From: Rickettsiales bacterium
Lineage (GTDB): Bacteria; Pseudomonadota; Alphaproteobacteria; Rickettsiales; UBA8987
Length of the DNA stretch: 64,000 nt
Direction of reading: 5' to 3'
Assembly (NCBI GenBank): GCA_965222525.1
Contig: OZ244955.1
Span: 640,140-704,139, forward strand
The stretch's first letter is position 1; every line of letters begins with the position of its first letter. The translations under genes were made by a program, and so were the position numbers. Of this stretch, positions 1 through 53,368 are shown piece after piece. Under the pieces are notes generated by a model. The model was not told the DNA's origin. It did no database searches and was given only the letters and a program-made list of their open reading frames with translations.

Positions 1-968
1 TTTTTTCCAAGTTTATCAATTATATATTCCGTTTGTGAGATAATCTTATCACGGTTATTACTTGCAAGTAAAAATGGATCAAGATTACCCTGAACACATA
101 CATATGGTTGTAAATTTTCCGCTGCCCATTCAGGCGGAACCGTATAATCTATACCAACACCATCAACACCGGTTTCCCTAGCATAATCAACATACCTGAC
201 ACCTGCACCTTTGGGAAACCCGATAATCGGAACATCCGGATATTCTATTTTCAGTGAATCAACTATTTTGCGGGTAGGTTCTATAATAAAATTAGTAAAT
301 TCCGGTTCCGGAACCACGCCGGACCAGCTATCGAATATCTGTACCAAATCCGCTCCTGCCCTAATTTGCCCGCCGATATAACTAATGGTTGATTTAACAA
401 TAATATCTATAATTTTATTAAACAATTCAGGTTTGTTATATGTAAATCCCTTAACCTTTGCAAAATCCTTGCTACCTCCACCTTCAATCATATATGTGGC
501 CACCGTCCATGGAGCTCCGGCAAAGCCAATCAAGGCCGTTTCGTCAGGTAACTCATCCCTGACCATCCCTATCGTATCAAAGACCGGTTGCAGATGACCG
601 GAAATATTATCAACCCGCAAATTATCTATGTCTTTTTCATCGGAAATACTTTCCAGAACCGGCCCCTTACCCTCGATATAATCCAGCCCCATACCCATCG
701 CATGTGGAATAACCAGTATATCGGAAAATATTATCGCTGCATCAAACCCGAATCGCCTTATCGGCTGTAACGTAATTTCACTGGCTATTTCCGGGGTATA
801 ACACATCTTCAGAAACGAACCATATTCCTCCCTGATTTTCCGGTATTCCGGTAAATATCGGCCAGCCTGCCGCATCAGCCATATGGGAGGTCTGTTGTAA
901 TTTTTCCCTTTCAAAGCCCCAATGATTTTCCCGTTTACTGAAGGTTCCTGCTTTTCCGCTAATTCCAT
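1..968 (-). CDS. hemE: uroporphyrinogen decarboxylase (C-terminus runs off the window start)
   Basis: Manual translation from the ATG at 968-966 gives MELAEKQEPSVNGKIIGALKGKNYNRPPIWLMRQAGRYLPEYRKIREEYGSFLKMCYTPEIASEITLQPIRRFGFDAAIIFSDILVIPHAMG. The PIWLMRQAGRYLPEYR and AAIIFSDIL motifs are HemE signatures. The ORF is missing from the track because it has no in-window stop. Confidence 0.9.
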   Translation of the reverse strand, partial: MELAEKQEPSVNGKIIGALKGKNYNRPPIWLMRQAGRYLPEYRKIREEYGSFLKMCYTPEIASEITLQPIRRFGFDAAIIFSDILVIPHAMGMGLDYIEGKGPVLESISDEKDIDNLRVDNISGHLQPVFDTIGMVRDELPDETALIGFAGAPWTVATYMIEGGGSKDFAKVKGFTYNKPELFNKIIDIIVKSTISYIGGQIRAGADLVQIFDSWSGVVPEPEFTNFIIEPTRKIVDSLKIEYPDVPIIGFPKGAGVRYVDYARETGVDGVGIDYTVPPEWAAENLQPYVCVQGNLDPFLLASNNRDKIISQTEYIIDKLGK

Positions 969-1039: not shown

Positions 1040-1370
1040 AAATAAAAATATATAAATATATTTTTGTAGTAGTTATTCGGCTTAATGATGTGGATTAAAA
1101 CTTATCCACATTATTTTCCACAATGATAAATATGTTTTTTTCATGTTTATAAAGCTGTTGATATAGAAAATTAACATATTGTATTTTCATAATAAATCCC
1201 GATATATATATTGCCTTGATAATATGAATAACCTGATTTTATATGAGAAAATCAACATATTGGTATAAGGTTATCAACATGTGGGAAAAACGGTTACTTC
1301 AGGTGAATTTCGGGGATATATTTTTCTTCTGTGGATAAGTAGAGAAGTTATTACCTGGTTATTCACAATA
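1040..1370. promoter_or_regulatory. candidate chromosomal replication origin: AT-rich intergenic region with a DnaA-box cluster
   Basis: Perfect TTATCCACA at 1102-1110 and perfect TGTGGATAA at 1330-1338. One-mismatch boxes at 1089-1097, 1114-1122, 1271-1279 and 1359-1367. A near-pure A/T tract lies at about 1040-1075. The region is directly upstream of hemE, the conserved oriC neighbour in Alphaproteobacteria. Confidence 0.55.
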
Positions 1371-1402: not shown

Positions 1403-1936
1403 TTATCTCTTTCTAACCCCCATAATCATCAATATGCTGATGCCGGCGGTGAATACCACGAAAACTTCGCCGAGTGTATCAAATCCCCTGTAGCTGGCCA
1501 GTACCGAGGTTACCACATTAGGAATACCTATTTCTCCGTATGATTTCTCCAGATAATGCGAAGCGACATGGCTGTTGGTAACCATATTCAAATCGCCGAA
1601 TGCCGGCATTCCCAGTGTTGCGTATATCAGAGCGCTGCCGGTGAGAAATATCACAACAAGCGGAAATACCAGATGTTTCGATGGTTTTTCCTCCTCGCCG
1701 GTGAGCAGCAATACCGCAAGGAACAATACCGTACTTATTCCGGCCCCGATAGCAGCCTCGGTGATTGCCACATCAGGTGCGTCCAGAACCAGATACATCA
1801 GCGCCATAAGCAGGCTGTATATGCCGAGCATTATGGTAGCGGTCATCAGGTTACGAGTGATTGCTACGGCTACCGCGGTTACGATAAGCAGTGCGAATAG
1901 TGAAATATCTATAACAATTTTCGGGTCGATTTCCAT
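1403..1936 (-). CDS. DUF4040 (MrpA C-terminal/MbhD-like) plus MnhB-like membrane protein, apparently truncated
   Basis: Contains LDAPDVAITEAAIGAGISTVLFLAVLL (DUF4040-like) and NVVTSVLASYRGFDTLGEVFVVFTAG (start of an MnhB domain). The ORF ends about 20 aa after that motif. No other mrp/mnh genes are adjacent. The start is taken at MEIDPK (1936), not the upstream M at 1987. Confidence 0.5.
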   Translation of the reverse strand: MEIDPKIVIDISLFALLIVTAVAVAITRNLMTATIMLGIYSLLMALMYLVLDAPDVAITEAAIGAGISTVLFLAVLLLTGEEEKPSKHLVFPLVVIFLTGSALIYATLGMPAFGDLNMVTNSHVASHYLEKSYGEIGIPNVVTSVLASYRGFDTLGEVFVVFTAGISILMIMGVRKR

Positions 1937-1961: not shown

Positions 1962-2549
1962 ATGAATACCCCATCATCACATAACAAATCAAGGAAAGCT
2001 TTCTATAAACATGCCGGTTTCTGGGTGGTTGCTGTGGTGTTTGCAGGGTTTATCGGACTCAGCCTTTATACATGGGAAGGGATAAAATGGGGGAAGGCCA
2101 AGGATACACCAAAAATAGGACAAGGATTCGGCAGGTCGGATTTTGATACGGCGTTTTCCATGCTTGATACGGATGATCAGGATGTTTTTGAGCGTGCAGT
2201 TTACAAGATGGAGCAGATGGGAGAGGCTGCAACGAACCGCCTGGTTGATATAATGGAGGATGGTGATTCAACTGACAAGCAGCGTATGGATGCAATATAT
2301 GTAACCGGCAGGATGGGTAAGGAAGCTTTGGGGAAGGCAGAAGTTCCGGTTATGAACTTTCTTCTGGATAATAATCCTGATTTACGGGCGGTTTCTGCAT
2401 CTGCTTTAGGAAAAATGAAGTCGAAAAACAGCGTATCCCGTTTGATAAATTTGCTTGATGATGAGGATGAGTGGGTAAGGAAAAGCGCAAAGAAAGCTTT
2501 GGAAAATATAGGAACCAGGCAGGCCAGAAAGGCTGTCAAGGGGAGATAG
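1962..2549 (+). CDS. HEAT-repeat (PBS-lyase-like) protein with an N-terminal TM helix
   Basis: The C-terminal half has repeated DxxVRxxAxxALGxxG-type units (NNPDLRAVSASALGKMKS, DEDEWVRKSAKKALENIG). The N-terminal half of ORF 1575..2549 is antisense to the Mrp-like gene and was discarded. The start at 1962 (MNTPSS) is tentative. Confidence 0.55.
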   Translation: MNTPSSHNKSRKAFYKHAGFWVVAVVFAGFIGLSLYTWEGIKWGKAKDTPKIGQGFGRSDFDTAFSMLDTDDQDVFERAVYKMEQMGEAATNRLVDIMEDGDSTDKQRMDAIYVTGRMGKEALGKAEVPVMNFLLDNNPDLRAVSASALGKMKSKNSVSRLINLLDDEDEWVRKSAKKALENIGTRQARKAVKGR

Positions 2550-2626
2550 TAGTGAATGTCTATACGGTCTGGGTCAATATCCCAAATTCATTGAGGGTTC
2601 ATGGGGGATTATGTATAATATAAAAT

Positions 2627-3028
2627 ATGATACGTCTGTTTTTAATAATATTACTGTGTTTTACGGCGGATATGGCTTATGCTCATAAATGGCGTGGATA
2701 TGGGGGAAAATATGCAGAATATCCTACCAGATTTGAAATTGCACAGGCAAGTGGCCTGTCTCCTGCGATAATTGCCAGGATACAGCGCAAATTTGACGGT
2801 CGTGTTGTTGGTGTGAGGAAGGCAGGGGGTGGGAAATGCCGTGAATACAGGCAGGATATAGTTGTCAATGGCAGGGCTGAGAAGGCTTCGGGAGCAGCCT
2901 GCCAGCAATCGGACGGCTCATGGCAAATAGGCTATAATTACGTAGTACAAATATTAAAAAGCAGCGGCAGGGTTATACTGGTAACGGTAAATGGCGTGAC
3001 CGGCGAGGTTGTTGAAGTGAGGAATTGA
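2627..3028 (+). CDS. small secreted protein with a surface-antigen-like Cys motif
   Basis: N-terminal signal-like MIRLFLIILLCFTADMAYA. The segment GGKCREYRQDIVVNGRAEKASGAACQQSDGSWQI resembles the CREY...G.AC.QPDGSW motif of 17-kDa-type surface antigens. Confidence 0.5.
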   Translation: MIRLFLIILLCFTADMAYAHKWRGYGGKYAEYPTRFEIAQASGLSPAIIARIQRKFDGRVVGVRKAGGGKCREYRQDIVVNGRAEKASGAACQQSDGSWQIGYNYVVQILKSSGRVILVTVNGVTGEVVEVRN

Positions 3029-3063
3029 TATATAGTGTTTATACCTGAAATATTTAATGAAAT

Positions 3064-3253
3064 GTCACCCCGGACGCATATTTTGTCCAAATCTATTGAT
3101 TTGGTTAACAAAATAGCGTTCTCGGGGTTATAAGCAAAAACACGTGCTGTTACTTATAACCCCGAGAATGGTGGTTTCTAAAACGAAATCATCCACCTTC
3201 GCTAAAGCTATGGTGGACAAGTAGATTTCGAGAAACCATCCATCCGGGGTGAC
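3064..3253 (+). repeat. structured palindromic repeat family A, copy 1 (190 bp, enlarged right arm)
   Basis: Termini GTCACCCCGGA...TCCGGGGTGAC. Inner stem TTCTCGGGGTTAT/ATAACCCCGAGAA. Two side hairpins. Homologous to 37278-37433 and, in inverted orientation, to 53205-53360. Confidence 0.85.
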
Positions 3254-3333
3254 AGGGGCTTAAATATACCAGGTTAAAATACTATAATATACTACCGCTA
3301 AAACCTGTAACCTGTCACTTAAAACCTGAAATA

Positions 3334-3855
3334 ATGAATATCCCGATCATAGACCAGATAGCAGCCAGACCCCGATACAGGGTGCCGTTGATGCTGTTTA
3401 TACTGGCAGGAGGGTCGCTGGCGGCTGCATTCATTGCACAATATGTGTTCGATATGCAGCCATGCATATTATGTATATATCAGCGCTATCCATATGCGAT
3501 AATTGCCGGACTGGCCGTGCTGGCCATGATGGTACCGGACAGGTATAATGTTGCAAAAGCCTTGCTTGTATTATGTTGCATGATATTCCTTGTTGAAGCT
3601 GGTATTGCGGTATTTCATATCGGTGTGGAGCAGAAATGGTGGAGTGGTACCGATGAATGCGGCGGAGAAGGATTTGCCGGAACCATAGAGGAAATAAGGG
3701 CTGCTATTTTCAATGCACCGATAAAGCGCTGCGACGAGCGTGAGGTATTTTTCCTAGGCCTTTCGATGGCCGACTGGAACGCATTATGGGCATTATTCCT
3801 GGCCGGATTATGTTTAATAACTTTTAACAGAATAGGAAAAAATGCTACCAGGTGA
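3334..3855 (+). CDS. dsbB: disulfide bond formation protein B family
   Basis: Four-TM profile. A CILCIYQRYPY (CxxC..QR) motif in the first loop and a second Cys pair (DECGG...KRCDE) in the second periplasmic loop. Confidence 0.75.
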   Translation: MNIPIIDQIAARPRYRVPLMLFILAGGSLAAAFIAQYVFDMQPCILCIYQRYPYAIIAGLAVLAMMVPDRYNVAKALLVLCCMIFLVEAGIAVFHIGVEQKWWSGTDECGGEGFAGTIEEIRAAIFNAPIKRCDEREVFFLGLSMADWNALWALFLAGLCLITFNRIGKNATR

Positions 3856-4372
3856 TAAATCGAAAAAGTCCCGTATAGAGCAGGTGATTAGGGTGAATCA
3901 TGCCGGTGAATATGGCGCGAAGCGAATTTATGCTGGCCAGCTTGCTGTATTAAAAAACCGCAAATGCGCACCGGTGATAGAACATATGGCCGAGCAGGAA
4001 GCAGAGCATCTGGCTGCTTTTGATGAAATGGTTGTCGACAGGAAAGTACGGCCGACTGCATTGATGCCGTTATGGCATATTGCCGGATTTGCACTTGGTG
4101 CCGGAACCGCATTACTTGGTGAGAAGGCTGCAATGGCCTGTACGGTTGCAGTTGAGGAGGTTATCGACGAGCATTATGCCGGCCAGCTTGAAGAACTGGA
4201 TGATGATGAAAAGGAACTGAAGCGTAATATAGAGAAATTCCGTGAGGAAGAGCTGGAACATCGTGATATAGGGATTGAGCATAATGCGGAGCAAACACCG
4301 GCCTATCCGCTGCTCACCTCTGCAATAAAATCCGCCAGCCGCACCGCAATCTGGCTTTCAACAAGAATTTAG
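3842..4372 (+). CDS. coq7: demethoxyubiquinone hydroxylase (Coq7 family di-iron protein)
   Basis: RVNHAGEYGAKRIYAGQ, EQEAEHL, VEEVIDEHY and EELEHRD match the Coq7 di-iron ligand pattern (E, ExxH, E, ExxH). Confidence 0.85.
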   Translation: MLPGDKSKKSRIEQVIRVNHAGEYGAKRIYAGQLAVLKNRKCAPVIEHMAEQEAEHLAAFDEMVVDRKVRPTALMPLWHIAGFALGAGTALLGEKAAMACTVAVEEVIDEHYAGQLEELDDDEKELKRNIEKFREEELEHRDIGIEHNAEQTPAYPLLTSAIKSASRTAIWLSTRI

Positions 4373-8833: not shown

Positions 8834-9265
8834 TCAGTGCTGCGGGTTTATTGAAACACAATCCACAACCAGTCTTTTGCCCAGGGCGGCAAATCCCCTG
8901 TCGAGCTGTTCTATCCTGGAGTTATGGGTAACATCAAGCAGCCGGTCAATCTGCTTCTGGTCACATGCCAGTTTTCTGGCAAGGGCGGCTTTCTTTATCC
9001 CCTGCTCCTGCATTTCCCAGTAAAGCAGCAGTTTGGCAGTTGTAACCGCATCTATTGCAACATAAGCCGTTCCTTTCTTTCTGCCGGGACGGGGTATTTC
9101 CTCCCGATGCGCTATCCTGGCAGCTATCACCTCGCTGAGGGCGTTCTGCGCATGAAAAACGGCGTCCTCCATGTCATCCCCGAAGGTAATAGCATCCGGG
9201 AAATGGGGAAATGTAACCATCAGGCTGCCATTATCATCCCTGGTTAATTTTACCGGATATTCCAT
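8834..9265 (-). CDS. hicB: type II antitoxin HicB family with C-terminal HTH
   Basis: N-terminal HicB fold pattern (YPVKLTRDDNGSLMVTFPHFPDAITFGDDMEDA) plus an HTH (GIKKAALARKLACDQKQIDRLLD). It lies directly downstream of hicA. Confidence 0.8.
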   Translation of the reverse strand: MEYPVKLTRDDNGSLMVTFPHFPDAITFGDDMEDAVFHAQNALSEVIAARIAHREEIPRPGRKKGTAYVAIDAVTTAKLLLYWEMQEQGIKKAALARKLACDQKQIDRLLDVTHNSRIEQLDRGFAALGKRLVVDCVSINPQH

Positions 9266-18411: not shown

Positions 18412-18717
18412 GGGTAGGGTATTTTCAGCGTAACTGAAAGCAATTTAATAGGAATTTTTCATAACTGCAATATGTTACGGATAAATTTGCTGAAGCCAAC
18501 AGGCGATATATGGTATAATAACAGTAATTCAACCTGAAATATCTACCTGCCTACTGCTCCCCCGCTTTACAGGGGAGCAGATGAGACAAGGGCTTAAGCC
18601 CGCAGTCGAATCGCGGGGGGTAGTGAGTAAGTGGAAAATAGAAACAGGAATGAGTTAGCTTCTGTTCCAGTTTCTATTTTCCAGTTTCCACACCTCCCGC
18701 CAATTCGCCAAGATGAC

Positions 18718-19413
18718 ATGAAACACAATACAGCAAATCGGCAAAATGGGGTCACACTGATAGAGCTCAGTATTGTTATAGTTATACTGGGGCTACTGGT
18801 TGGTGTGGTTATGGGCGGGCAGTCATTGCTGCTTAGTATGAAAATTCGTTCCGTAGTTGCCAATGTTAAAGGATTCATGATTGCGACTGATAATTTTAGA
18901 GAGAAATATAATTCTCTGCCCGGTGATATGGTTGATGCTTCCGAATATTGGGCTGACTGCGACACCCCTGCAACGCTTTGCAATGGTAACGGCAATGAAC
19001 GGATTGAATCCGGCGGTGAGGATTTACGGGTATGGCAGCAGCTTGCCGATAGCGATATGATAGAGGGGGATTATACCGGCTCGGGCTCGTTTGAGGTTGA
19101 TGTTAATCTCCCGCCTTCAAGATTCACCGATAGCGGTTATATCATGTATTATAATTCGGCTCTCTATGGTAGTAGTAGCAATGCTATACAGTTTGGGGGT
19201 ATTTCATCTACTGACACCAGGCTACCAATATTAAATGCACGAGATGCAATGTCGGTTGATATATTAATGGATGACGGGCTGGCCGCCAGCGGTGATGTAG
19301 TTACCACCGATGCCAATGGTTACACCGGCTGTGTTGATACCTCTGCTACTCCCAACAAATACACTCCCGATGATGAAACCGCCCTCTGCATAATGTATTT
19401 CTGGCTTCAGTAA
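18718..19413 (+). CDS. prepilin-type N-terminal methylation-domain protein (type IV pilin / pseudopilin-like), paralog 1
   Basis: NGVTLIELSIVIVILGLLVGVVMGG is a class III signal / hydrophobic N-terminal helix. It shares F.EKY.SLPGDM.DAS..W and a GNGN-type motif with 30098..30811. No pilus assembly genes are nearby. Confidence 0.7.
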   Translation: MKHNTANRQNGVTLIELSIVIVILGLLVGVVMGGQSLLLSMKIRSVVANVKGFMIATDNFREKYNSLPGDMVDASEYWADCDTPATLCNGNGNERIESGGEDLRVWQQLADSDMIEGDYTGSGSFEVDVNLPPSRFTDSGYIMYYNSALYGSSSNAIQFGGISSTDTRLPILNARDAMSVDILMDDGLAASGDVVTTDANGYTGCVDTSATPNKYTPDDETALCIMYFWLQ

Positions 19414-25197: not shown

Positions 25198-26206
25198 AAA
25201 TAATATAGAAAAAATAATGGTAATAAATCTCGGCGGTACCCGTGAAATGGCGCTGGGGACTGCCGCTTTTGCCGCTATCCGCGAGTTTCATCCCAATGCG
25301 CATATAATCCTGCTTACCACCGCCAGATATGCTGAATTCGGCCAGCAATCGGGTTATTTCAATGAAATCTGGGTTGACCCGCTGCTCAACTGGTATGATG
25401 TACCGCAAGTCTTACATTTTCTGAAAAAGCTGCGCAACTCCGGTATTCAACTGGTATATGATTTGCAGAATGTCCGTCGCAGTAATATGTATTTCCGTTG
25501 CATGGGACGCAACAAACCCCTGTGGAACAGCAGCAATATTAACTGGTGTTCGCATTATTATGACAATCCCGATGCCCATCTGATGCATTTTCTCGACCGG
25601 CAGGCCGAACAGCTTATGGTTACGGGTATGGAATTTATACCGCCGCCCGATATATCATGGCTGCAGGCGGATATATCGAAATTTTCCTTTCTGGAGACAG
25701 GGCAGCCTTATGCATTGCTGGTGGCAGGCGGGCTTGAGGATGAGAAACAAAGCCGCTGGCCGGAGTCCGGCTATGTCGAGGTGGCGGAATGGCTGGCGGA
25801 GATTGGTGTATTGCCGGTATTTATCGGGGATGAAGCAGACAAGGCGCTGATAAAATCGATAGACCGTTCCTGTGTGCATATTGACATTGCCAATCTGGCC
25901 GGACGAACGAGTCTGGCCGATATTGCCGAACTGGCCAGGGGTGCGGTATTTGCTATAGGTGCCGGTGACGGTTACATGCATCTGATGGCACTGACCGGCT
26001 GTCCGTCGATTTTTCTTTATTCCGGCTATTTCGTACAGGAAATCCACACCCCGATAGGTGATGCGATAAATATCATGTATCAGCGCGAACCCTCGCAAAT
26101 CCTCCCCAGCACGGTTATAGACAGGCTGATTGAGATGTTCGGCCTTAACGAGGGGGAGGAGGCGCAAGATAATGAAGATGAGGAAGCCGAAAATGACAGT
26201 GCCTAA
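25190..26206 (+). CDS. family 9 glycosyltransferase (heptosyltransferase-like) with an acidic C-terminal tail
   Basis: IMVINLGGTREMALGTAAFAAIREFHPNAHIILLT and ...ELARGAVFAIGAGDGYMHLMALTGCPSIFLY fit the GT9 pattern. It overlaps the GT2 gene by 8 nt. Confidence 0.65.
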   Translation: MTENNIEKIMVINLGGTREMALGTAAFAAIREFHPNAHIILLTTARYAEFGQQSGYFNEIWVDPLLNWYDVPQVLHFLKKLRNSGIQLVYDLQNVRRSNMYFRCMGRNKPLWNSSNINWCSHYYDNPDAHLMHFLDRQAEQLMVTGMEFIPPPDISWLQADISKFSFLETGQPYALLVAGGLEDEKQSRWPESGYVEVAEWLAEIGVLPVFIGDEADKALIKSIDRSCVHIDIANLAGRTSLADIAELARGAVFAIGAGDGYMHLMALTGCPSIFLYSGYFVQEIHTPIGDAINIMYQREPSQILPSTVIDRLIEMFGLNEGEEAQDNEDEEAENDSA

Positions 26207-29200
26207 TGTCTTGGTGCTGGGCTGCGGCTGGAGTGGTCGTGGTTATGTTTATCATGCCCGTTTTTGCGGGGGAGGAGGCCGTTGTTCCTGGAGGCCAGGT
26301 CGTTATTGTCAGCATCAAGGCCGAGGTCACGCAGACCATCCACTATATTCTGCATTTCCTGTTCCTGTCTGGTGAGTGGCTTGTCTTTTTCGGCAGATTT
26401 TTCCTCGGACTTTTCAATATTTTTATTCTCTGCAATTCTCTGGTCAACATATTCCTGTATCCTGACCATATTGCGTTTCTTTTCTTCATCCGTATCGCCC
26501 AGCGGCAACAGCCCCTTTTCTATGAAAGGCTCCAGATTCTGCTCATTGAGGGATTGCAGGCCGGTTACATTACGCAACCTGTCATAGTTAAATTTATGGC
26601 CTTCTTCCTTCAGCTCCTTGATATCATCAAGCAATTCACGTTTGGCAGGGTCGAGGTCGATTATCCTGTCACGGCCGGATTCGGGCAGTTCAACCCCCAT
26701 ATCCCTGGCAACCCGCTCGGCGTTTTCCTTGATTACCGCCACTTGTGCGATCATCATATTGGAAATATGCATTTTCTTCTCGGCATCCTTACCTTCCGTT
26801 TTGAAAACCTTGCCATCGGAAAACTCCAATTTGTCCCTTTCCTCGGGGTTAAGCGGATTGACAAAACTCACATGTTCGGCAGATTTTTTCAGCACTTCCG
26901 CAGCCTTGTCATCACCATCCTTTTCGGCAATTTTGCCAAGCAGATATTCAGCCTCACGGGATGTGGCAAAATGGTTTAATTCCTCAAGCTGCTGCGCATC
27001 CATCCTTATATCACGTAATTCGTCCAGATTAACCGACTGGCCTTTTTCCAGCTTCAGCCCAAGCTTTTCCTGCAATTCCGCATCTGATATACTTTCCTCT
27101 GGCAGTGCGGCAAGCCGTTCCACCAAATCTTGCATATGCTGTGAACGGTTATCCTGATTGGCCAGATGTTGCGATGTTAGCTGGAACACATCCTCTGCAT
27201 CAGATGGAATCAGGTAGCGTGCGGCACTGACTTCCTTACCATCCACATCGGCATAAAACTCAATGGTTTTCCTGGCTTTGCCGTCATGGCCAAACGCACC
27301 GTCCGCACGCTCCACCTCACGATATTTCAGCTCACCCTCCATGCCGAAACCATCAGAATCATCCTGCAGCGCCCTGTTGATTTCCGTCATGGCCTGTTTA
27401 CGCTCCTGTTCTCCCAGTGCGATGAATTTATTCTCGGCCTCGGCCAGGGTACTCATCTTGAACACACCCCATGCAACCCTGCTGTACGCCTTGTCATCCT
27501 TCACCAGAACCGACCACACATCTTCCCCCCTGGCAAACTGCATATTACCCTGCTCGACAACCTCAAACAGGGTCGGGGCAATCCTGCCGGTAGTATTCTC
27601 ATCGCCGGTCACCAGAACCGCCATCTCATGGTCACTGATTGCCTTGCCGTGATCGGTCAGGTAGTCCATATTATAAAGAATATCCTCCTTCCTGGCCGCG
27701 ATATTACGCTGGTTATGCAGATGCTCATCCACTTCTTCGGCACGCCGGCCAACCGCCATCAATGCCGCAGCCGACATACCGCTCAGATAACCCTGCTCGA
27801 TATATTCCTGCGGAGACATCTCAACCTCACCAAAACCGTCATCAAATTTAACCCTGATTTCGCCGGAACTATCACCGCCCTCACTATCGCCCTTCGCAAG
27901 CTGTGCAGCATCTTTCTCACGTTTTTCCTCATCACCGAACAGGATAAAGGCCAGCCATGCCGCATCCATACCCGCCTGCTGCATAAGCTTGTCGATTTTC
28001 TCCCTGGTTTCGGTTGCCAGCCTGGTTTTCTCCTTCTCCTGACCGGGAGTTTTGGTTTGCTCGGGAGTAATTTCCGCATCATATATATTGTCATTAACCT
28101 GCTCCAGCACATCTTTATCAAATTTGTGCCTGCGCCATAAATGGGTCGATACCAGAGCAGTACCAATACCGCCCTCCACAGCGTCATCCCTGTATTGTGC
28201 AACCACCATACCGCTGTCATTGCGGAACACATCGGTAATACCACTGCCGGGTGCAAGATTGTTGATAGTATCCGTTATCCGCTTGCCTGCCTCCTCGGCG
28301 CTCATGCCGCTGCGCTCGGCCTCACGCATAAGGAAATCCGCACGATACTGGATATCATCGGCAATATCGGCATTTTCGAAAACCTCACCCATCTTCTGAA
28401 GTGAACGGTAATGGCTCTCCTCACGGCCAACATCCTTATGCGCAACCCACAGGAATTCCTTCAGCCCGTAAACGGTGGCAACCGTCTGGGCGGTTTCATT
28501 GGCCTCAACCAGAAAACCATGACTGTCACTATGCCAGATATCCTTGATATACCCCTCGCCAAGCGCAGGGTCCTTATCCAGCACCGACTTGATATCATCA
28601 CCCGTAATCCCGATCTTCCGCTCGGCATTGATAATATTGCGCTCTAACGCTGCCGCATCCTCCATCGCCGGAGCCTCATGCGGCATCATCATCCGCCATT
28701 TGGGGTGATATTGCGAATTAAACACCCGTACCAGATCATCTTTATTGTAAAGCTGGAGGTCAACTTTCTCGGTCTTGCCGAAATCATTGGTTATCGGTAC
28801 CTGATGCGCTACACCAATCTCAAAGTCAAATTTGTAATCCTTGTTTTTGGCAATTTGCTGCAAATCCCTGCCATGCATATTCATGGTCTGGGCAAGCTTG
28901 TCGAAAAATATCTTATTCTCGTCGGAACTGTTCTTGGGGTCAATGCCGCTATCCTGCATTATCATCGAGCCGGCCTCCTCTCCCATATTAACCATATTGG
29001 CCAGCATGAGGTTATATCTATGCTCCTGTTCCGACTCCATCGCAGCGGTAAGCTGCCTGACCTCATCCTTGCTTTTGCCTTCCTTCTTCAGGGATTTCTC
29101 GTATTGTTTGAGTTCCTTCTTCTGATGCTCCTTTAAATCCTTGCCGAATGTATTATCAAACTGCTCCTTTACGACACCAAACACAGTAGTGTGCTCGTCA

Positions 29201-37450: not shown

Positions 37451-37870
37451 CTACTTATTATCCGCTTCGGCGATGAAGGCATCGATCACCGACTGGGCTA
37501 TGTCAACCTCGCCCTGGGCGGCTTCCTTTTCCTTCTCGGTTTTTGCCTGCTGATGGAGCTTCTTGGTGGCCTCCAGACGCTTTTCCATGGCCTCTCTGGT
37601 ATGATTGGCAAAATCATAGGCCTCGGTAGCCAGTACCGTGCAGCGTTCATTGGTTATCTCGGCCACACCGCCGGCCACCAGATAGCGTGCCACTATCTCA
37701 TTGCCCTGATATGAGCGTATCACCCCCGGACGCAGATTGGATATCACCGGCGCATGTCCGGCCAGAACACCCATATCTCCCTCAGCCCCCGGCACAACCA
37801 CCATCTCCACCTCATCGGAGGAGAGAAGCTTCTCGGGTGTAACCAGGTCGAATTTTAATGACTGCGTCAT
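37451..37870 (-). CDS. atpC: F1 ATP synthase epsilon subunit
   Basis: LVTPEKLLSSDEVEMVVVPGAEGDMGVLAGHAPVISNLRPGVI is the epsilon beta-sandwich pattern. It is the last gene of the atp F1 set. Confidence 0.9.
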   Translation of the reverse strand: MTQSLKFDLVTPEKLLSSDEVEMVVVPGAEGDMGVLAGHAPVISNLRPGVIRSYQGNEIVARYLVAGGVAEITNERCTVLATEAYDFANHTREAMEKRLEATKKLHQQAKTEKEKEAAQGEVDIAQSVIDAFIAEADNK

Positions 37871-38335
37871 GATAATAGATGATAGATTATGGATGATAGA
37901 ATTAAATCTTTATTTTGCTTCGTAAATTTTGCAACATCCTTATTATAATTTCGTATTCATTATTCCAGTTATTAAAGGTTTTGGTATCTATATACCCCAA
38001 GTCAACACAATAGCACAACCAGATTTGCATTTCACTTGCGGAACCTATTGCTATGGAAATAAACCGCTTGAATTCTGCCTTTGAATGAGATTGTTTTACG
38101 AACCCCTCGGCCAGATTTGCACAAACAGACTTACTCGCCCTGCGCACCTGCTTGGCAAGGTCATACTGCTCTATCTGCGGAAATTCAAGACTTGCCTTAT
38201 GAATTTCCAGGGAGACAGCATAGGCTTTTTTAAAAACATCAAGGTCTCTTGCACTTTTAACCAGTCTTGAAGTTATATCCGTAACGTCTGCCATATTTTC
38301 CCCTCCATCATCCATCATCTATAATCCATCATCTG
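37871..38335 (-). mobile_element. IVS-like cassette 1: four-helix-bundle ORF bracketed by inverted repeats
   Basis: Arms at 37878-37899 (gatgatagattatggatgatag) and 38312-38333 (reverse complement gatgatggattatagatgatgg) match at 19 of 22 positions. All three differences are A/G. The cassette abuts the atpC start codon. Confidence 0.45.
37902..38294 (-). CDS. four-helix-bundle protein (23S rRNA intervening-sequence protein / Avd-like family)
   Basis: ARDLDVFKKAYAVSLEIHKASLEFPQIEQYDLAKQVRRASKSVCANLAEGF...AIGSASEMQIWLCYCVDLGYI matches the family pattern (F.vw..A..l...iy..t..fP..E.y.L..Q.rRAa.Si..NIAEG). The start is taken at MADVTD. The upstream MMDDGGEN is encoded by the repeat arm. Confidence 0.75.
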   Translation of the reverse strand: MADVTDITSRLVKSARDLDVFKKAYAVSLEIHKASLEFPQIEQYDLAKQVRRASKSVCANLAEGFVKQSHSKAEFKRFISIAIGSASEMQIWLCYCVDLGYIDTKTFNNWNNEYEIIIRMLQNLRSKIKI

Positions 38336-38360
38336 TTTATAGAACATATAATCGCCAGAT

Positions 38361-38735
38361 TCAATATGGTAAATTATCGGGAGCGACTCCGATATAGTCA
38401 GGCTCGGGGTTGGTGGTAAACTGAACGGCTTTTATTTGCTCCTCTCCCTGCAGAAATGCCTTGCCAACCCGGTGCATGCCGTCCATTACACGGCCATCCG
38501 AGGCAAGAATTATAGGAAAACTCAAGTCAGCGTCCCGGATTAGACCTGCATGCTCAAATACGCTTCTGCATGTAGGTGTTTTGCCATCAAGGAACCAGAA
38601 TGGTTCGTCAATTTCCCTTATTTCAGAAAGAGGAACCATCTTTGGTACGAACCCGCCGGAAAGCTCTATCAGACGGTCGATATCCCACGCTTTCAACCCC
38701 GCCCCGGACGGCTGGAAGTGATATTGCTTTCTCAT
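38361..38735 (-). CDS. small ParB/sulfiredoxin-like (ParB N-terminal domain) protein
   Basis: PIILASDGRVMDGMHRVGKAFLQG resembles the DGxHR core of ParB-N/Srx-fold proteins. This assignment is from memory of the motif only. Confidence 0.45.
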   Translation of the reverse strand: MRKQYHFQPSGAGLKAWDIDRLIELSGGFVPKMVPLSEIREIDEPFWFLDGKTPTCRSVFEHAGLIRDADLSFPIILASDGRVMDGMHRVGKAFLQGEEQIKAVQFTTNPEPDYIGVAPDNLPY

Positions 38736-38769
38736 GATGGTTGGGTGTTACAACTGTTTTTGTATTCCC

Positions 38770-39414
38770 TTAAAATCCTAAAGCACGTTCAGCACTTTTT
38801 AGCTCCTTAAGCTGGTTCTTAACACCAAGAGCTTCTCCGATTTTATTAGTGATAATACCTTCAATGATTTCTCTGGTTGATCTATCAGAAACCTGTTCTG
38901 CTTTATCATATGCCTCACCTATTGTTTTGCTCGGCAGTAGAGCTCCTAAAATTGTCGCAATGTTTTTATTGGTTCTATGCTCATATGTAACTTTCGCCTT
39001 CATTTCATTGTTATCAATTTCTAATGAACGTAGATTATCTCTATTCTTGTTTATGAAGTTGAACTGGGTTTCATAAGCACGAGCTCCTTCACCATACTTG
39101 GCTATAAACTCATTAAGCTTACCTTGTGTATTAGTTATAACTGCGCCAGGGTCTACTCTTGAAGCGCCATCAAAGGTATGCAAAGCGTTGCTTTCTATAA
39201 TGTTATAGTTGCCTCTTTCTCCGTATTCTTCTTTTGCTTTCTTGATAATCTGGTTTCTTGTAAGACTTTTTTCATTTTCCAAAGCAGAAGCAATTGAATA
39301 AATCGCAGCATTAACACCGGGTTGGATTTCATCAAAAGATGGATCCCCTGTTGCTAAATCTTTAGTGGACTGCGCCCAAGCTTTCACCTGATTGTTTTCT
39401 AGTTTGTCTGACAT
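38770..39414 (-). CDS. orphan protein (214 aa), cysteine-free, no signal peptide
   Basis: The start is chosen at MSDKLENNQ, preceded by AAGGAG with a 7 nt spacer. I recognise no family motif. It has its own promoter-like motif at 39489-39521. Confidence 0.5.
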   Translation of the reverse strand: MSDKLENNQVKAWAQSTKDLATGDPSFDEIQPGVNAAIYSIASALENEKSLTRNQIIKKAKEEYGERGNYNIIESNALHTFDGASRVDPGAVITNTQGKLNEFIAKYGEGARAYETQFNFINKNRDNLRSLEIDNNEMKAKVTYEHRTNKNIATILGALLPSKTIGEAYDKAEQVSDRSTREIIEGIITNKIGEALGVKNQLKELKSAERALGF

Positions 39415-39488
39415 TTCTCTCTCCTTAAAGTTAAAACCTGCCACCAATCCCCCCATGGAAAAGGTAGGCTGTTTTGTTTATGGGAGGG

Positions 39489-39521
39489 AGTATAGCAGAG
39501 AAATGTTAAAGTTTTATGACA
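39489..39521 (-). promoter_or_regulatory. extended -10 promoter-like motif shared with 29761-29793
   Basis: The minus strand reads TGTCATAAAACTTTAACATTTCTCTGCTATACT (TGnTATACT), about 70 nt upstream of the 39414 start. Confidence 0.45.
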
Positions 39522-39653
39522 GGATTACATTTTTTTGAAAAAATTTTCAGGAGGAGCCTAACCAGTTGGAATATATAGTTTTATTTTTGCAAAAATAATT
39601 TTGACAATCTGTCACTAGCAGTAAATATACCTGTATTTCCTTAAATAGTGTCG

Positions 39654-39872
39654 TCAAATTCTACCATTATGCGCTTCCACATAAGAGCGCAGAACGGCAT
39701 TCATATAGGACTGATAACCTTTTCCCTGTGATTTAAACCAGTCAACAACCTCTTTATCTGCACGGAAGGATATCATCTGCTTGGGAGAAGTATTGTGTAA
39801 TATCTTCAAATATTTCCAGAAATCACCGGTCAGGTCAGGAATATCGGAATAATCAATTTCGGAATCAGGCAT
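39654..39872 (-). CDS. BrnA-family antitoxin-like protein (no BrnT partner adjacent)
   Basis: MPDSEIDYSDIPDLTGDFWK...ISFRADKEVVDWFKSQGKGYQSYMNAVLRSYVEAH matches the BrnA pattern (DSEIDYSDIPE...ISIRLD.DVL.WFK..G.GYQT.IN..LR). The longer ORF start (39917, MMDDRGE) lies inside the repeat. Confidence 0.65.
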   Translation of the reverse strand: MPDSEIDYSDIPDLTGDFWKYLKILHNTSPKQMISFRADKEVVDWFKSQGKGYQSYMNAVLRSYVEAHNGRI

Positions 39873-39901
39873 CTCAGCCAATTCCCTAGCTGTTTTTTCT
39901 C

Positions 39902-39932
39902 CTCTATCATCCATCATCTATAATCCATCATC
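39902..39932. repeat. third copy of the GATGATGGATTATAGATGATGG word, abutting the atpD stop
   Basis: ctctatcatccatcatctataatccatcatc is identical to 38303-38333 except at one base. It is inverted relative to 37878-37899. Confidence 0.8.
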
Positions 39933-39938
39933 CAGCAG

Positions 39939-41372
<1,434 letters not shown>

Positions 41373-41386
41373 TTACTCCTTGAAAA

Positions 41387-41857
41387 GAAACTGGAAACTG
41401 GAAATTAGAAACTGGAATTTAATTACTTTCTGTCTTTAATCTTACTTCTGAGATTTTGCAGCATCCTGGATACGATATTATATTCCTCAACCCACTTGTT
41501 ATGCTTGTTTTTATCGATATAACCGAGATCAAGGCAATATTTTATCCATATTTTCATCTCTCCGCATGAACCTATCGACATAGAAACGAATCGCCGAAAT
41601 TCCGGAGTAGAATGCACTTGCTTATAAAAACCTTCTGCTAAATTTGCGCATACAGACTTGCTAGCCCTGCGCATCTGTTTAGCAAGGTCATATTGTTCTA
41701 CCTGTGGAAATTTAAGGCTAGTTCTGTGAATGTCCAGAGAAACAGCGTATGCTCTTTTGAAAACTTCCAAATCCTGAGGCTCTCTGACGTAACTGGAGAT
41801 GCTCTCAACATTACCCTCTTCCATACTTCCGGCTTCTAGTTTCCAGTTTCCAGTTTC
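41387..41857 (-). mobile_element. IVS-like cassette 2: four-helix-bundle ORF bracketed by a 24 nt inverted repeat
   Basis: 41387-41410 is gaaactggaaactggaaattagaa. The reverse complement of 41834-41857 is gaaactggaaactggaaactagaa. They match at 23 of 24 positions. The unit is 471 bp. Confidence 0.55.
41423..41824 (-). CDS. four-helix-bundle protein (23S rRNA intervening-sequence protein / Avd-like family), paralog of 37902..38294
   Basis: PQDLEVFKRAYAVSLDIHRTSLKFPQVEQYDLAKQMRRASKSVCANLAEGF...SIGSCGEMKIWIKYCLDLGYI is roughly two-thirds identical by eye to the other copy. The start is taken at MEEGNV. The upstream METGNWKLEAGS is encoded by the repeat arm. Confidence 0.75.
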   Translation of the reverse strand: MEEGNVESISSYVREPQDLEVFKRAYAVSLDIHRTSLKFPQVEQYDLAKQMRRASKSVCANLAEGFYKQVHSTPEFRRFVSMSIGSCGEMKIWIKYCLDLGYIDKNKHNKWVEEYNIVSRMLQNLRSKIKDRK

Positions 41858-41865
41858 CATATTTA

Positions 41866-42600
41866 TTATCCTTTCTCCGCAACCACCATCAATGACACCC
41901 CGAATGGAAATCTTATCTTTCCTATAAAAAACCTCTCGCTGCCAAAAATTTTTATCAGCAGGCTGTTAACGAAATTTCCCGGCAGGGTCAGGTTCGATAC
42001 CTTGCTTTTTTTATTTCTGAATTTCTCCACCATCCTCACCAGTGCTATCGGTGGAAACAGCCAGAAATTAAAATAGCTGGCATATTTTATATTAAAGCCC
42101 TCCGCTTTTAGCAATCCGGTCAGTCCCGCCCTGTTGTAGCGACGGAAATGATGATGGTCCGTATCATGTGCCGACCATAAAAACTGAAATGCCGGAACGG
42201 TCAGGAAAATCATACCATTATCTTTTAGCTGCCCTTTCAGTACCTCCAGTGTTTTCTGGTCATGTTCTATATGCTCAAGCACATCAAATGCAACAATTAA
42301 ATCGAACTTTTTATCCGCAAATGCAGTATTATCAGGCAATTCGATAGATTCGACATTTTCAGCAACTCCTTTTTCCCTTGCCACCTGTCTTGCGGTTGCA
42401 TCATATTCCGCTGCATAAACCCTGCCATATTGCGACAGCATCTCCAGATTGCCGCCACTACCGCAGCCTACTTCCAGAATTTCCGCATCCTGCGGAAGCT
42501 GCAACCTGTCAAGCATACGCCTGATTATCTTCCTGCGGGCAACAAACCACCAGTGCCTGCCCTCCAGCTCCGCCATCTTTATGTAGGCCTCGCGCTCCAT
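41866..42600 (-). CDS. class I SAM-dependent methyltransferase
   Basis: HWWFVARRKII plus SAM motif I ILEVGCGSGGNLEML and a post-I acidic residue. A GGGGAG Shine-Dalgarno sequence lies 5 nt upstream. It sits between atpG and atpD on the same strand. Confidence 0.8.
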   Translation of the reverse strand: MEREAYIKMAELEGRHWWFVARRKIIRRMLDRLQLPQDAEILEVGCGSGGNLEMLSQYGRVYAAEYDATARQVAREKGVAENVESIELPDNTAFADKKFDLIVAFDVLEHIEHDQKTLEVLKGQLKDNGMIFLTVPAFQFLWSAHDTDHHHFRRYNRAGLTGLLKAEGFNIKYASYFNFWLFPPIALVRMVEKFRNKKSKVSNLTLPGNFVNSLLIKIFGSERFFIGKIRFPFGVSLMVVAEKG

Positions 42601-42622
42601 TACGCTCCCCTATTATAAAAGT

Positions 42623-43525
42623 CTACAATGCCTCTGCGCCCGAGATGATCTCGGTCAGTTCGGTTGTAATAGCAGCCTGGCGGGTACGGTTATATTGCAG
42701 GGTTAAATCCTTTATCATCTCACCCGCATTGCGAGTGGCGTTATCCATCGCAGTCATCCGTGCCCCCTGCTCGCTTGCCGCATTCTCCAGCTGGGCGTGG
42801 AAAATCTGCACCGCAATATTTCTGGGCAGAAGCGCAGATAAAATCTCCTCCTCGCCAGGTTCATATTCATATACGGCGGCTACACCATCCTCGGCCTCTT
42901 CCGCAAGAACCCCATCCATCTCCAATGGAATCAATTGCTGGAAGGTTACTTTCTGGGTAAGTGCCGATTCAAACTTGTTATACACAACCGAGCAGGAATC
43001 AATATCACCAGCCTCAAACATGGTAATAACCTGATTCGCAACCGCTTCCGACTGCACATATTCCGGCTTTGCCTGACTGGAAGTATCTATACGTTCCGAC
43101 ACATTATTCTCATAACCATGTTTTAGCTGTTCCCAGCCTTTCTTACCGACTATCATCAGTCTGGCCAGCTTGCCCTTGCCTTCCATTTCGGTGATTTTCT
43201 GCTTTATCGCCCGCACCAGAGAACTGTTCAGCCCGCCGCAAAGCCCGCGGTCAGAAGTAACCGCTATAATCAGATGATTTTTATCGGCAATATCTCCCGC
43301 CGCATCACGCCTGCCCGAAAGAAGCGCAGGGGAATTTTCCGGATCAGCCTTGGTCGCCAGAGCCGCAAGCATACGCTCCATCTTTTCGGTATATGGCCGT
43401 GCCGCCTCCGCACGCTCCTGCGCACGCTTGAGCTTGCTCGCAGCCACCATCTTCATCGCCTTGGTGATTTTCTGCGTAGACTTAACACTACTTATACGGT
43501 TTTTCAGGTCCTTGAGATTTGCCAT
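42623..43525 (-). CDS. atpG: F1 ATP synthase gamma subunit
   Basis: MANLKDLKNRISSVKSTQKITKAMKMVAASKLKRAQ and the C-terminal QAAITTELTEIISGAEAL are gamma signatures. Confidence 0.93.
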   Translation of the reverse strand: MANLKDLKNRISSVKSTQKITKAMKMVAASKLKRAQERAEAARPYTEKMERMLAALATKADPENSPALLSGRRDAAGDIADKNHLIIAVTSDRGLCGGLNSSLVRAIKQKITEMEGKGKLARLMIVGKKGWEQLKHGYENNVSERIDTSSQAKPEYVQSEAVANQVITMFEAGDIDSCSVVYNKFESALTQKVTFQQLIPLEMDGVLAEEAEDGVAAVYEYEPGEEEILSALLPRNIAVQIFHAQLENAASEQGARMTAMDNATRNAGEMIKDLTLQYNRTRQAAITTELTEIISGAEAL

Positions 43526-43758
43526 CAGATATGTAGTTCCGTAGTCTGGTTGCTTTCCTCGTTAACTACCAAAAGGCTGGGTTCATCCTTACCTTTCAGT
43601 TGTTCATTAGCATTAAGCAACTCAATTCCATATATTTTCCCATCAGGAGACAGGTCAATATTCAACTCGCTACTGACCGATATGGTATCTACCATCCCGT
43701 CTTTCTCACGTAGTTTCATATACGCAATATTATGTTTTGGGTCGTATGTCAGTTTCAT
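43525..43758 (-). CDS. DUF2283-family protein (putative antitoxin partner)
   Basis: MKLTYDPKHNIAYMKLRE...DLSPDGKIYGIELLNANE fits the DUF2283 pattern (YD.E.D.LYI.L...D....G...GIEIL.AS). Its TGA overlaps the atpG ATG (TGATG). Confidence 0.65.
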   Translation of the reverse strand: MKLTYDPKHNIAYMKLREKDGMVDTISVSSELNIDLSPDGKIYGIELLNANEQLKGKDEPSLLVVNEESNQTTELHI

Positions 43759-43765
43759 CTTATCC

Positions 43766-44029
43766 TCAGAAGTATTTTACTATAACAGTGATAACCAGCC
43801 AATTTTCTTCCTCCTCTACTGCAAAAACCTCAAGCTGCTTATTATCATAAAACTTCCTGTTCCAGTGAGAGGAAAAATTAAAAGTTCTGCGGAAACCTAT
43901 TCTACCATACTTTGCAGAAAATTGCTCTCCATTTTCAACTGTAGATATAACCTCTTCTCTGGTTGCACCCCTTTCAACCATTCTTGCTTCAGCATGGGGA
44001 TGAAATTTCACATCCATGATTCTTTCCAT
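43766..44029 (-). CDS. DUF4258-family protein (putative toxin partner)
   Basis: FHPHAEARMVERGATREEVISTVENGE fits the DUF4258 N-terminal pattern (H...RM..R.I....V). Its ATG at 44029-44027 overlaps the atpA TGA (TGATG). Confidence 0.6.
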   Translation of the reverse strand: MERIMDVKFHPHAEARMVERGATREEVISTVENGEQFSAKYGRIGFRRTFNFSSHWNRKFYDNKQLEVFAVEEEENWLVITVIVKYF

Positions 44030-45564
44030 CAACTTTTCGCAAACACCTTAACAAATTTATCCAACGCGCTGCGGAGTTCCTTTTCGCTGTCTTCGGATAA
44101 TTTGCCTTCATTGCGGATTACATCCAGCAACCCCTGGTGTTTGCCATGCATTTCGCTCAGGAATTCCTTTTCAAAACGGGTTACATCCTTTGCATCTATA
44201 TCATCGAGATAACCATTTACACCGGCAAAGATGGAAACCACCTGCTCCTCCACCAGCAGCGGTGAATACTGGTCCTGCTTGAGCAGTTCCACCAGACGTG
44301 AACCGCGTGCCAGAAGTTTTTGCGTAGCCGCATCAAGGTCGGAGCCGAATTGTGCAAATGCCTCCATTTCACGGAACTGCGCCAGTTCCAGCTTAATCTT
44401 GCCTGCCACCTGTTTCATACCCTTGATTTGCGCTGCCGAACCTACCCTCGATACCGACAGTCCAACATTTACCGCCGGACGTACACCCTTATAAAACAGC
44501 TCGGTTTCAAGGAATATCTGGCCGTCGGTAATTGAAATCACATTAGTCGGGATATAGGCGGATACGTCACCGGCCTGGGTTTCGATAACCGGCAGGGCGG
44601 TAAGTGAACCGGCACCTTCTTCATCCGACATTTTAGCAGCCCGCTCAAGCAGCCGCGAGTGCACATAGAATACATCGCCCGGATAAGCCTCACGCCCCGG
44701 CGGACGGCGCAGCAATAGCGACATCTGACGATAGGCCACCGCATGTTTGGACAAATCATCATATGCAATCAGCGCATGCTTGCCGTTATCACGGAAATAC
44801 TCACCCATTGCACAGCCGGTATATGGTGCGAGGAACTGCAGCGGCGCCGATTCGGATGCGGTTGCGGCAACTATAATTGAATATTCAAGCGCACCTTCCT
44901 CCTCCAGCTTTTTGGCTATCTGCGCTACAGTCGAGCGCTTTTGCCCGATACACACATAGATACAGTAAAGTTTTTTACTTTCATCATCGCCTGCATTGAT
45001 GGATTTCTGGTTGAGGAATGTATCAAGAATCACGGCGGTCTTGCCGGTCTGACGGTCGCCGATAATCAACTCACGCTGGCCGCGCCCTACCGGAATCAGC
45101 CCGTCAATCGCCTTGATACCGGTCTGCACCGGCTCATGCACCGATTTACGTGCGATAATACCGGGAGCCTTTACCTCGATACGGGAACGGTTTTCGGTTA
45201 TCACCGGCCCCTTACCGTCGATAGGATTACCCAGCGCATCCACTACGCGGCCAAGCAGTTCGGGTCCTACCGGTACATCAACAATCCGGCCGGTACGCTT
45301 GACCGTATCGCCCTCCTTGATTTCCTTCTCGCCACCGAACAGCACTACCCCGACATTGTCCTCCTCGAGATTCAGCACCATCCCCACATTACCGCCGGGA
45401 AACTCCACCATCTCACCGGCCTGCACCTGGTCCAGCCCATATACGGTTGCAATACCGTCACCGACCGACACCACCTGCCCGATTTCTGCCAGTTCCGCCT
45501 CGGTTGAGAAATTGGCAATCTGCTTCTGCAAAATGCTTGATATTTCCGCTGCCTGAATTTGCAT
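44029..45564 (-). CDS. atpA: F1 ATP synthase alpha subunit
   Basis: [19 protein letters not shown] (P-loop) and [23 protein letters not shown]. Confidence 0.96.
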
Positions 45565-45617
45565 ATTATTCTCCTTTTATTACGTGTTTCTACCCGTTTT
45601 TCTTCGACTGTCGAGCG

Positions 45618-45842: not shown

Positions 45843-45854
45843 TAGCTCCAGCTA

Positions 45855-53191: not shown

Positions 53192-53204
53192 AGTTACGAT
53201 TACT

Positions 53205-53360: not shown

Positions 53361-53368
53361 ATACATTA

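Follow-up and report, generated by a model that had tools for sequence, protein, structure and literature searches.

A candidate hemE-linked replication origin in a rearranged gene neighbourhood of a Rickettsiales bacterium

Contig OZ244955.1 of a Rickettsiales bacterium (assembly GCA_965222525.1) raises the question of whether the AT-rich gap next to its hemE gene is the place where replication of the chromosome begins. The DNA examined here, referred to as the window, is a 64-kb stretch (positions 640,140 to 704,139) of a replicon of ~2.11 Mb; leftwards of the gap, the window extends for no more than 968 bp. A first-pass annotation had read the gap as the chromosomal origin or a relic of it, a proposal that gains support from the present analysis because the cluster of DnaA boxes in the gap exceeds chance, the gap lies directly upstream of an outward-read hemE, and, as the strongest point, it holds a sequence core that is conserved in the canonically flanked gaps of relatives. 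On these grounds, the gap at 969-1402 is probably the active DnaA-dependent oriC of this ~2.1-Mb alphaproteobacterial chromosome, so that the genome of a poorly sampled lineage can be annotated and oriented from a well-founded position. As an oriC, a hemE-linked gap is an already known and ordinary kind of element; only the conserved four-box/ACTACT core and the head-on context of the surrounding genes go beyond the routine.

Architecture of the gap upstream of hemE

The gap covers 434 bp with a GC content of 27%, the lowest among the 21 intergenic regions of at least 150 bp in the window, and is bounded on the left by hemE (uroporphyrinogen decarboxylase; 1-968, minus strand, 3' end beyond the window edge; Pfam URO-D, E = 2e-110), which is read outwards from it as in a Caulobacter-type origin locus, and on the right by a gene with MbhD and MbhE domains. 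The 434-bp length given earlier for the gap adjoining hemE is borne out, provided that hemE starts at ATG 968. The database hemE call P0001 (371 aa, 100% identical) starts instead at 1028, 20 codons upstream, which would put the 5' end of the gene 6 nt from an A/T tract; the resulting 20-residue N-terminal extension has no counterpart in six homologues, and for this reason ATG 968 is the likely start.

Six DnaA boxes with at most one mismatch were observed in this non-coding gap, against 0.23 expected and a maximum of four in 20,000 dinucleotide shuffles of the gap, and none of the other intergenic regions of at least 150 bp in the window holds more than one box. A rescan of the sequence recovered in place each of the two perfect and four one-mismatch boxes listed in the first-pass annotation, which includes the perfect box TTATCCACA at 1102-1110 (plus strand) and its complement at 1330-1338 (minus strand), the sole perfect boxes in the 64 kb; box A, TAATCCACA, at 1089-1097 (minus strand), which is separated by 4 nt from the first perfect box and points towards the A/T tract; TTTTCCACA at 1114-1122 (plus strand), in tandem with the same perfect box across a 3-nt gap; TTATCAACA at 1271-1279 (plus strand), which doubles as a third, weaker copy of a 17-nt repeat; and TTATTCACA at 1359-1367 (plus strand). 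The number of perfect boxes alone is not significant, as 17 of 100 shuffles of the 64 kb reach two. On the strand that is sense for hemE, the order within the left cluster is TGTGGAAAA-taa-TGTGGATAA-gttt-TAATCCACA-TCATTAAGC, with two positions facing each way; the last of these, designated box B (1080-1088, minus strand), was placed by alignment to the four-box template described below and is degenerate, with five mismatches.

The A/T tract reported earlier at about 1040-1075 is real, and its pure A/T run proved slightly longer than had been described, extending over 32 nt at 1034-1065. This run, a candidate DNA-unwinding element (DUE), is the longest in the window (the runner-up has 21 nt) and, by nearest-neighbour energy, marks where both the 30-mer and the 40-mer of lowest stability in the 64 kb are found; the hemE promoter probably overlaps it. 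Box A faces the run from 23 nt away, so that an A/T-rich element lies beside a box that points at it. Beyond the box array, the hemE-sense strand reads cgaataa-CTACTAC and then enters the A/T run. The complement of this heptamer, GTAGTAG at 1066-1072 (plus strand), resembles the DnaA-trio motif and offers two canonical trios, 3'-GAT GAT-5', running away from box A. In E. coli the R1 box points at the DUE, and by analogy with this arrangement the polarity of the putative trios relative to box A would be the expected one. Across the box array from the A/T tract, sequence composition and repeat analysis showed a second AT-rich stretch (1123-1160), in which positions 1126-1150 form a 25-nt imperfect repeat (76% identical) of 1052-1076 in the A/T tract.

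Between the left and right boxes, the 17-nt direct repeat occurs in two plus-strand copies that are 94% identical. The first, AGAAAATYAACATATTG at 1165-1181, is one base off the IHF consensus, and the second, at 1246-1262, holds AATCAACATATTG at 1250-1262, a perfect match to the consensus WATCAANNNNTTR and one of only four such matches in the whole 64 kb. A putative IHF site of the kind found in Caulobacter-type loci is accordingly present as a consensus match, and no such site was found in the gaps of the relatives. CtrA sites (TTAA-N7-TTAA), which are a feature of the Caulobacter-type locus, are lacking from 969-1402 and from the gaps of eight relatives alike, and 969-1402 contains no GATC and one GANTC. 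With both CtrA sites and GATC absent, the gap does not encode repression by CtrA as in Caulobacter, nor sequestration of the Dam/SeqA type, as far as its motifs tell. Promoter and terminator scans of 900-2100 gave nothing above shuffles, and scans of the window for Rfam families and tRNAs gave no match.

Conservation in relatives and comparison with known origins

For comparison, hemE loci of ~13-21 kb each were taken from genome and metagenome collections. Besides P0001, the best HemE match among ~5.8 billion proteins is 60% identical, and the named matches belong to Alphaproteobacteria, comprising Rhodospirillales-type genera and a 'Rickettsiales' metagenome-assembled genome (MAG); the relatives in which the core was shared have HemE proteins 53-60% identical to that of the window. 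The Rhodobacterales loci L003-L011 and L013-L015 had no boxes beside hemE and did not serve as comparators. An outward-read hemE beside the gap is the layout common to all relatives examined, and the densest DnaA-box cluster of each relative's locus lies in the gap between PDRP and hemE. Of the eight distinct relative loci outside Rhodobacterales, seven have PDRP/DUF299 (PF03618) and hemE diverging from this gap, and in L012, which is without PDRP, the box cluster is still at hemE. Beyond PDRP, the genes maf, aroE, coaE, dnaQ and secB follow to varying extents; beyond hemE, most relatives carry hemH, hemJ and rho, with trmE-gidA-gidB-parA seen on that side in L021 only.

The shared core was described by a four-box template, TGTGGATAA-N3-TGTGGATAA-N4-TTATCCACA-TTATCCACA, with spacings of 3, 4 and 0, scored over 36 positions. 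The window matches this template with 7 mismatches, L017 with 4, L001 and L016 with 5 each, and, more weakly, L002 with 11 and L020 with 13; in all six, no other site of the locus matches better, and the distance upstream of hemE is 130-270 bp. Elsewhere in the window, the best unrelated site has 13 mismatches. By this template no core was found in L003-L005, L012-L015, L019 and L021, where the best sites have 13-17 mismatches. The boxes are followed by ACTACT and then by an A/T tract in five of nine loci, namely the window, L001, L016, L019 (CTACTACTAC) and L021, including the two with a GC content of 61-63% (L019 and L021); the chance of finding ACTACT in a 30-nt slot is ~0.002 per locus. 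Differences were also observed for individual boxes. Box A is usually TATCCCCA in the relatives and TAATCCACA in the window, and the box B position of the relatives carries a recognisable box abutting box A, which may be TTATCCACA, TTATTCACA, CTATTCACA, TAATTCACA or TCATTCACC. The complement of two perfect and four further boxes in the window stands at the high end among the relatives, and neither the number nor the quality of its boxes gives a sign of decay on inspection of the sequence. The three-box (←←→) portion of the core pattern had no match in viral contigs.

The core common to canonically flanked origins is thus found in the window, and because it is conserved in position, order, orientation and spacing, the gap at 969-1402 is, by sequence comparison, orthologous to the canonical alphaproteobacterial hemE-linked origin gap. 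The canonical gaps between diverging PDRP and hemE (L001, L016, L017 and L019-L021) resemble that of the window in the four-box core, in an A/T tract equally far from hemE and, for several of them, in ACTACT; the canonical relatives differ in that PDRP(-maf)-aroE-coaE-dnaQ is retained across the gap from hemE and in having genes that diverge from the gap, neither of which holds for the window. The recurrence of a four-box, ACTACT and A/T core upstream of hemE in distant uncultured Alphaproteobacteria, high-GC ones included, could offer a sharper signature for finding origins than box counts or GC skew, both of which fail here. Two further observations were made on the compared loci. The Rhodobacterales hemE loci without an adjoining box cluster come from Sulfitobacter, Halocynthiibacter, Thalassobius and Yoonia; either the link between hemE and the origin is not universal in Alphaproteobacteria, or the boxes of Rhodobacterales differ. 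An overlapping DsbB-COQ7 pair lies at 3334-4372 (plus strand) in the window and at 2260-3325 in the 'Rickettsiales' MAG locus L020, at distances from the origin of 2 kb and 7 kb, respectively; in both it is found on the non-hemE side, though in opposite orientation, and this pair is the sole synteny found on that side.

Comparison with known origins places the gap close to several of them. In the E. coli oriC, perfect R-type TTATCCACA anchors near the ends of the array enclose an IHF site, and the DUE adjoins an outward-pointing box; the window resembles it in its anchor boxes, its intervening IHF site and the position of its DUE, and differs in having no GATC in the gap, no 13-mer repeats and other flanking genes, with gidA 55 kb away. 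The mapped origin of Caulobacter crescentus, Cori, lies between hemE and CC0001/COG1806/duf299, and the predicted origins of Rickettsia and Wolbachia are likewise found upstream of an outward hemE (PMC1914354; PMC6393856). Cori shares with the window the position directly upstream of outward hemE, DnaA boxes, an A/T-rich opening region, an IHF site and a gap of ~400 bp (PMC1914354, PMC6393856). Cori, however, contains boxes tuned to low affinity, of which two are moderate G-boxes and five weak W-boxes, along with five CtrA sites (PMC6393856), whereas the boxes here are of the E. coli type, two of them perfect and four near-perfect, and the gap has no TTAA-N7-TTAA, one GANTC and no DUF299/PDRP flank. 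Strong boxes without CtrA sites provide a data point on how far the Caulobacter-style control of initiation by CtrA reaches.

The neighbourhood of the predicted Wolbachia origin is a precedent for a split locus, as hemE and COG1806 lie more than 600 kb apart there and the predicted origin signature stayed with hemE (PMC1914354). The Wolbachia gap (hemE - COG1253) and that of the window have in common the split between hemE and COG1806, a length of ~400 bp and the presence of DnaA and IHF sites; the Wolbachia gap is more AT-rich than its genome, and GC skew is as unhelpful there as in the window (PMC1914354). The two differ in that Wolbachia has 3 boxes for DnaA, between 2 and 7 CtrA sites and a CBS-domain neighbour, whereas the window has six boxes, no CtrA site and a DUF4040 neighbour. 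The oriC of Azospirillum, located between yqfL and hemE, contains six boxes, of which four form a group (bioRxiv 10.64898/2026.09.14.751567). The basal unwinding system (BUS), which B. subtilis shares with other bacteria, is resembled in the co-oriented abutting boxes, the short spacer, the 3'-GAT-5' trios and the A/T-rich DNA (PMC8287927, PMC10721633), and the window departs from it in having two canonical trios within the 16-nt limit on the conserved side against three required, and in its degenerate proximal box.

Proposed initiation and the rival explanations

The initiation scheme proposed for the gap is modelled on E. coli and B. subtilis. DnaA would occupy the perfect boxes at 1102-1110 and 1330-1338 as high-affinity anchors, after which ATP-DnaA would cooperatively fill the one-mismatch boxes. 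From box A (1089-1097), an oligomer might extend over the box B position (1080-1088) onto GTAGTAG (1066-1072), and would melt the 32-nt A/T run at 1034-1065, which computes as the least stable duplex of the window. IHF bound at 1250-1262, between the left array and the boxes at 1271, 1330 and 1359, could bend the DNA, and through this bend the right-hand DnaA complex may contact the opened region and help to load the helicase. Transcription of hemE would exit through or beside the A/T tract and may aid opening, as reported for Caulobacter (PMC6393856). Binding, bending and unwinding at the gap are what we infer from these parallels.

Several observations weigh against the reading of the gap as an active oriC. 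Within the gap, the box B position is degenerate. Under the published search rule for a BUS, a box may have up to two mismatches and a spacer up to 16 nt, and three or more DnaA-trios (3'-NAN-5') are required (PMC8287927); the conserved hemE-proximal side falls short of it, presenting a 16-nt spacer and two trios (GAT GAT, then GTT); the opposite side passes a lenient BUS pattern, with the tandem boxes 1102/1114, an 11-nt spacer and a T-run at 1134-1151, a match that includes no GAT and is unspecific. Around the gap, the canonical right flank of the Caulobacter-type locus, the PDRP cluster, is absent from the window, and so is the parS consensus. The genes to the right are mostly not co-oriented with a fork leaving this gap: 40 of 55 lie on the minus strand, a share that rises to 37 of 45 beyond 11.7 kb, leaving 15 of 55 and 8 of 45, respectively, in the direction of the fork. 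The atp operon (atpHAGDC), glnA and gidA are among the minus-strand genes that would meet a rightward fork head-on, and seven of the first ten genes right of the gap point away from it. This gene orientation argues against long-standing rightward replication from the gap. The classic skew test lends no support either, as no replication-associated skew was detected at four-fold sites; and a second, better origin might lie elsewhere on the replicon, beyond the 64-kb window.

The skew itself tells little in either direction. Bulk GC skew is negative on the plus strand from 12 to 58 kb, and this tracks the coding strand. When the skew at four-fold sites was split, the coding component was c = +0.044 and the replication component r = -0.007, with a bootstrap 95% interval from -0.048 to +0.032. 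Being a coding-strand effect, the skew is therefore uninformative on fork direction, and the negative bulk skew was dropped as evidence contrary to an origin since it has no replication component. The KOPS-like sequence GGGNAGGG (FtsK-orienting polar sequence), with 11 sites against 9 expected, 4 on the plus and 7 on the minus strand, similarly follows the coding strand and is uninformative.

The rival that survives best holds that the gap is a retired or secondary origin, in which, following a rearrangement or duplication by which the ancestral origin neighbourhood was split, initiation now takes place at another copy on the chromosome and the hemE-linked copy persists as a recent relic, silent or rarely firing. 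The excess of minus-strand genes to the right (40/55) would fit replication from right to left, the canonical partner cluster is missing from the window, breakpoints lie nearby (a trmE stump at 57780-57872 and an orphan DUF4040 gene), and the consensus of box B has been lost. A relic in a spacer of 27% GC would nevertheless be expected to decay, yet the perfect boxes, the N3/N4/0 spacing, the trio-like motif and the A/T tract are all kept; box B is weak also in canonically flanked relatives (L019, L020 and L021); the 64 kb hold no second box cluster; and long leftward replication predicts a negative skew at four-fold sites, where r is close to zero. Weighing both sides, we regard retirement as unlikely.

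Less probable again is a DnaA-binding locus that is not an origin, such as a DnaA-controlled hemE promoter or a titration or recycling site like datA or DARS. The boxes do lie in the hemE promoter region together with a consensus IHF site, and E. coli datA and DARS are likewise made up of boxes with an IHF site. Such sites combine boxes and IHF without an unwinding element, whereas the gap has a DUE-like tract and a trio-like motif; a box that faces a 32-nt A/T tract, with the trio-like motif between them, constitutes an architecture for unwinding and not for titration. The gap is moreover orthologous to the canonical origin gap of the relatives, and to our knowledge no equivalent of datA or DARS has been described in Alphaproteobacteria, all of which makes this alternative highly improbable. 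A chance pile-up of box-like 9-mers in an AT-rich spacer deserves almost no credence, for although two perfect boxes per 64 kb are ordinary when their clustering is ignored, the explanation is refuted by the shuffle test and by the conservation of the four-box template in relatives.

The rearranged neighbourhood

Rearrangement beside the origin, at which the first-pass annotation had hinted, was confirmed independently by the missing PDRP cluster and by the trmE stump at gidA. The hint had come from the right-hand neighbour, which was described as a truncated Mrp fragment. This ORF (open reading frame; 1403-1936, minus strand), a DUF4040 membrane subunit with MbhD and MbhE domains in Pfam, matches positions 4-172 of the 178-residue NCBIfam model NF009159 with 202 bits (cutoff 141), that is, end to end, and is therefore not truncated; what stands of the earlier description is that the gene is out of context, an orphan near which no other Mrp or Mbh subunit lies. 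It is transcribed into the candidate origin and occupies the place that the PDRP gene has in the relatives. By tblastn, PDRP, maf, aroE, coaE, dnaQ, secB, hemH, hemJ and rho were all without a match in the 64-kb window, and it would appear that the origin kept hemE and lost its PDRP-maf-aroE-coaE-dnaQ neighbour through rearrangement.

A second break was observed at gidA. An intact gidA/mnmG (55772-57742, minus strand) lies directly downstream of a stump of trmE/mnmE (57780-57872, minus strand), which comprises the last ~34 codons, …VEDILDKVFSSFCIGK*, with the FCIGK terminus typical of the family; the stump is 58% identical to the C-terminus of TrmE in L021 (E = 2e-7), and stop codons precede it. 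Downstream of gidA, a gene for an M23 peptidase takes the place of gidB-parAB. The trmE stump and the absence of gidB-parAB after gidA show that the ancestral origin-side trmE-gidA-gidB-parAB cluster is broken on both sides of gidA. At the trmE breakpoint, a 181-aa ORF of low GC content (57921-58466, minus strand), hydrophobic and membrane-like and without a match in Pfam or NCBIfam, may be inserted foreign DNA. The gidA gene and the trmE stump are situated 55 kb to the right of the candidate origin, on the same strand as hemE, whereas in L021, the one relative locus that extends to these genes, they are on the hemE side; both flanks of the candidate origin are non-canonical. A gidA-adjacent origin at 57.7-58.6 kb, suggested by low GC, a local strand switch and the E. 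coli precedent, was considered and rejected, as the gaps there hold one and zero boxes and the strand switch reverts at 60.6 kb.

The hemE-origin block may have been displaced with respect to genes that formerly belonged to the left replichore, and such a displacement would jointly explain the excess of minus-strand genes, the presence of an orphan gene at the junction and the lack of the PDRP cluster. The more specific account, in which the block moved by ~56 kb with respect to its ancestral neighbours and represents a natural case of origin relocation, is offered tentatively and with more doubt than confidence. Should the origin still fire on this account, a formerly co-directional block of 45-55 kb, including the atp operon, would now be head-on to the fork, and the near-zero replication skew would reflect that the direction of replication was reversed recently. 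An origin active in that context would make the genome a useful natural case in which to study relocation, and the locus would otherwise be routine. At the orientation boundaries (11.7 and 58 kb), neither long inverted repeats nor insertion sequence elements were found, and only small dispersed intergenic repeats were present.

Several repeats and insertions were additionally observed in the window. A palindromic intergenic repeat of ~130-160 bp, similar to miniature inverted-repeat transposable elements or repetitive extragenic palindromes (MITE/REP-like), occurs in three copies in both orientations (3062-3187, 37277-37437 and 53201-53362), one of which is 1.7 kb from the candidate origin; such repeats are possible substrates for rearrangements. 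A second family of ~225 bp, 90-97% identical and with GC-rich hairpins (CCTCCCCCGCTTGCGGGGGAGG), is found at 45618-45842, between atpA and atpH, and at 51643-51858, between trpE and an M16 peptidase gene. The atpH-A-G-D-C genes (37451-46412, minus strand) are interrupted by five extra genes, which include two paralogous genes for a '23S rRNA-intervening sequence protein' (PF05635; 37902-38318 and 41423-41860) and a methyltransferase gene (41866-42600); short repeats flank the insertions, at 38296-38333/39895-39932 and, inverted, at 41387-41417/41827-41857. Matches to HicB-like and MazE-like antitoxins were observed for the genes at 8834-9265 (minus strand) and 60381-60707 (plus strand), and the antitoxin-like genes, repeats and insertions together suggest a plastic genome. 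A 1150-aa ORF at 26203-29655 (minus strand) has no Pfam match, and its neighbours at 30098-30811 and 18631-19413 carry prepilin-type N-terminal methylation motifs.

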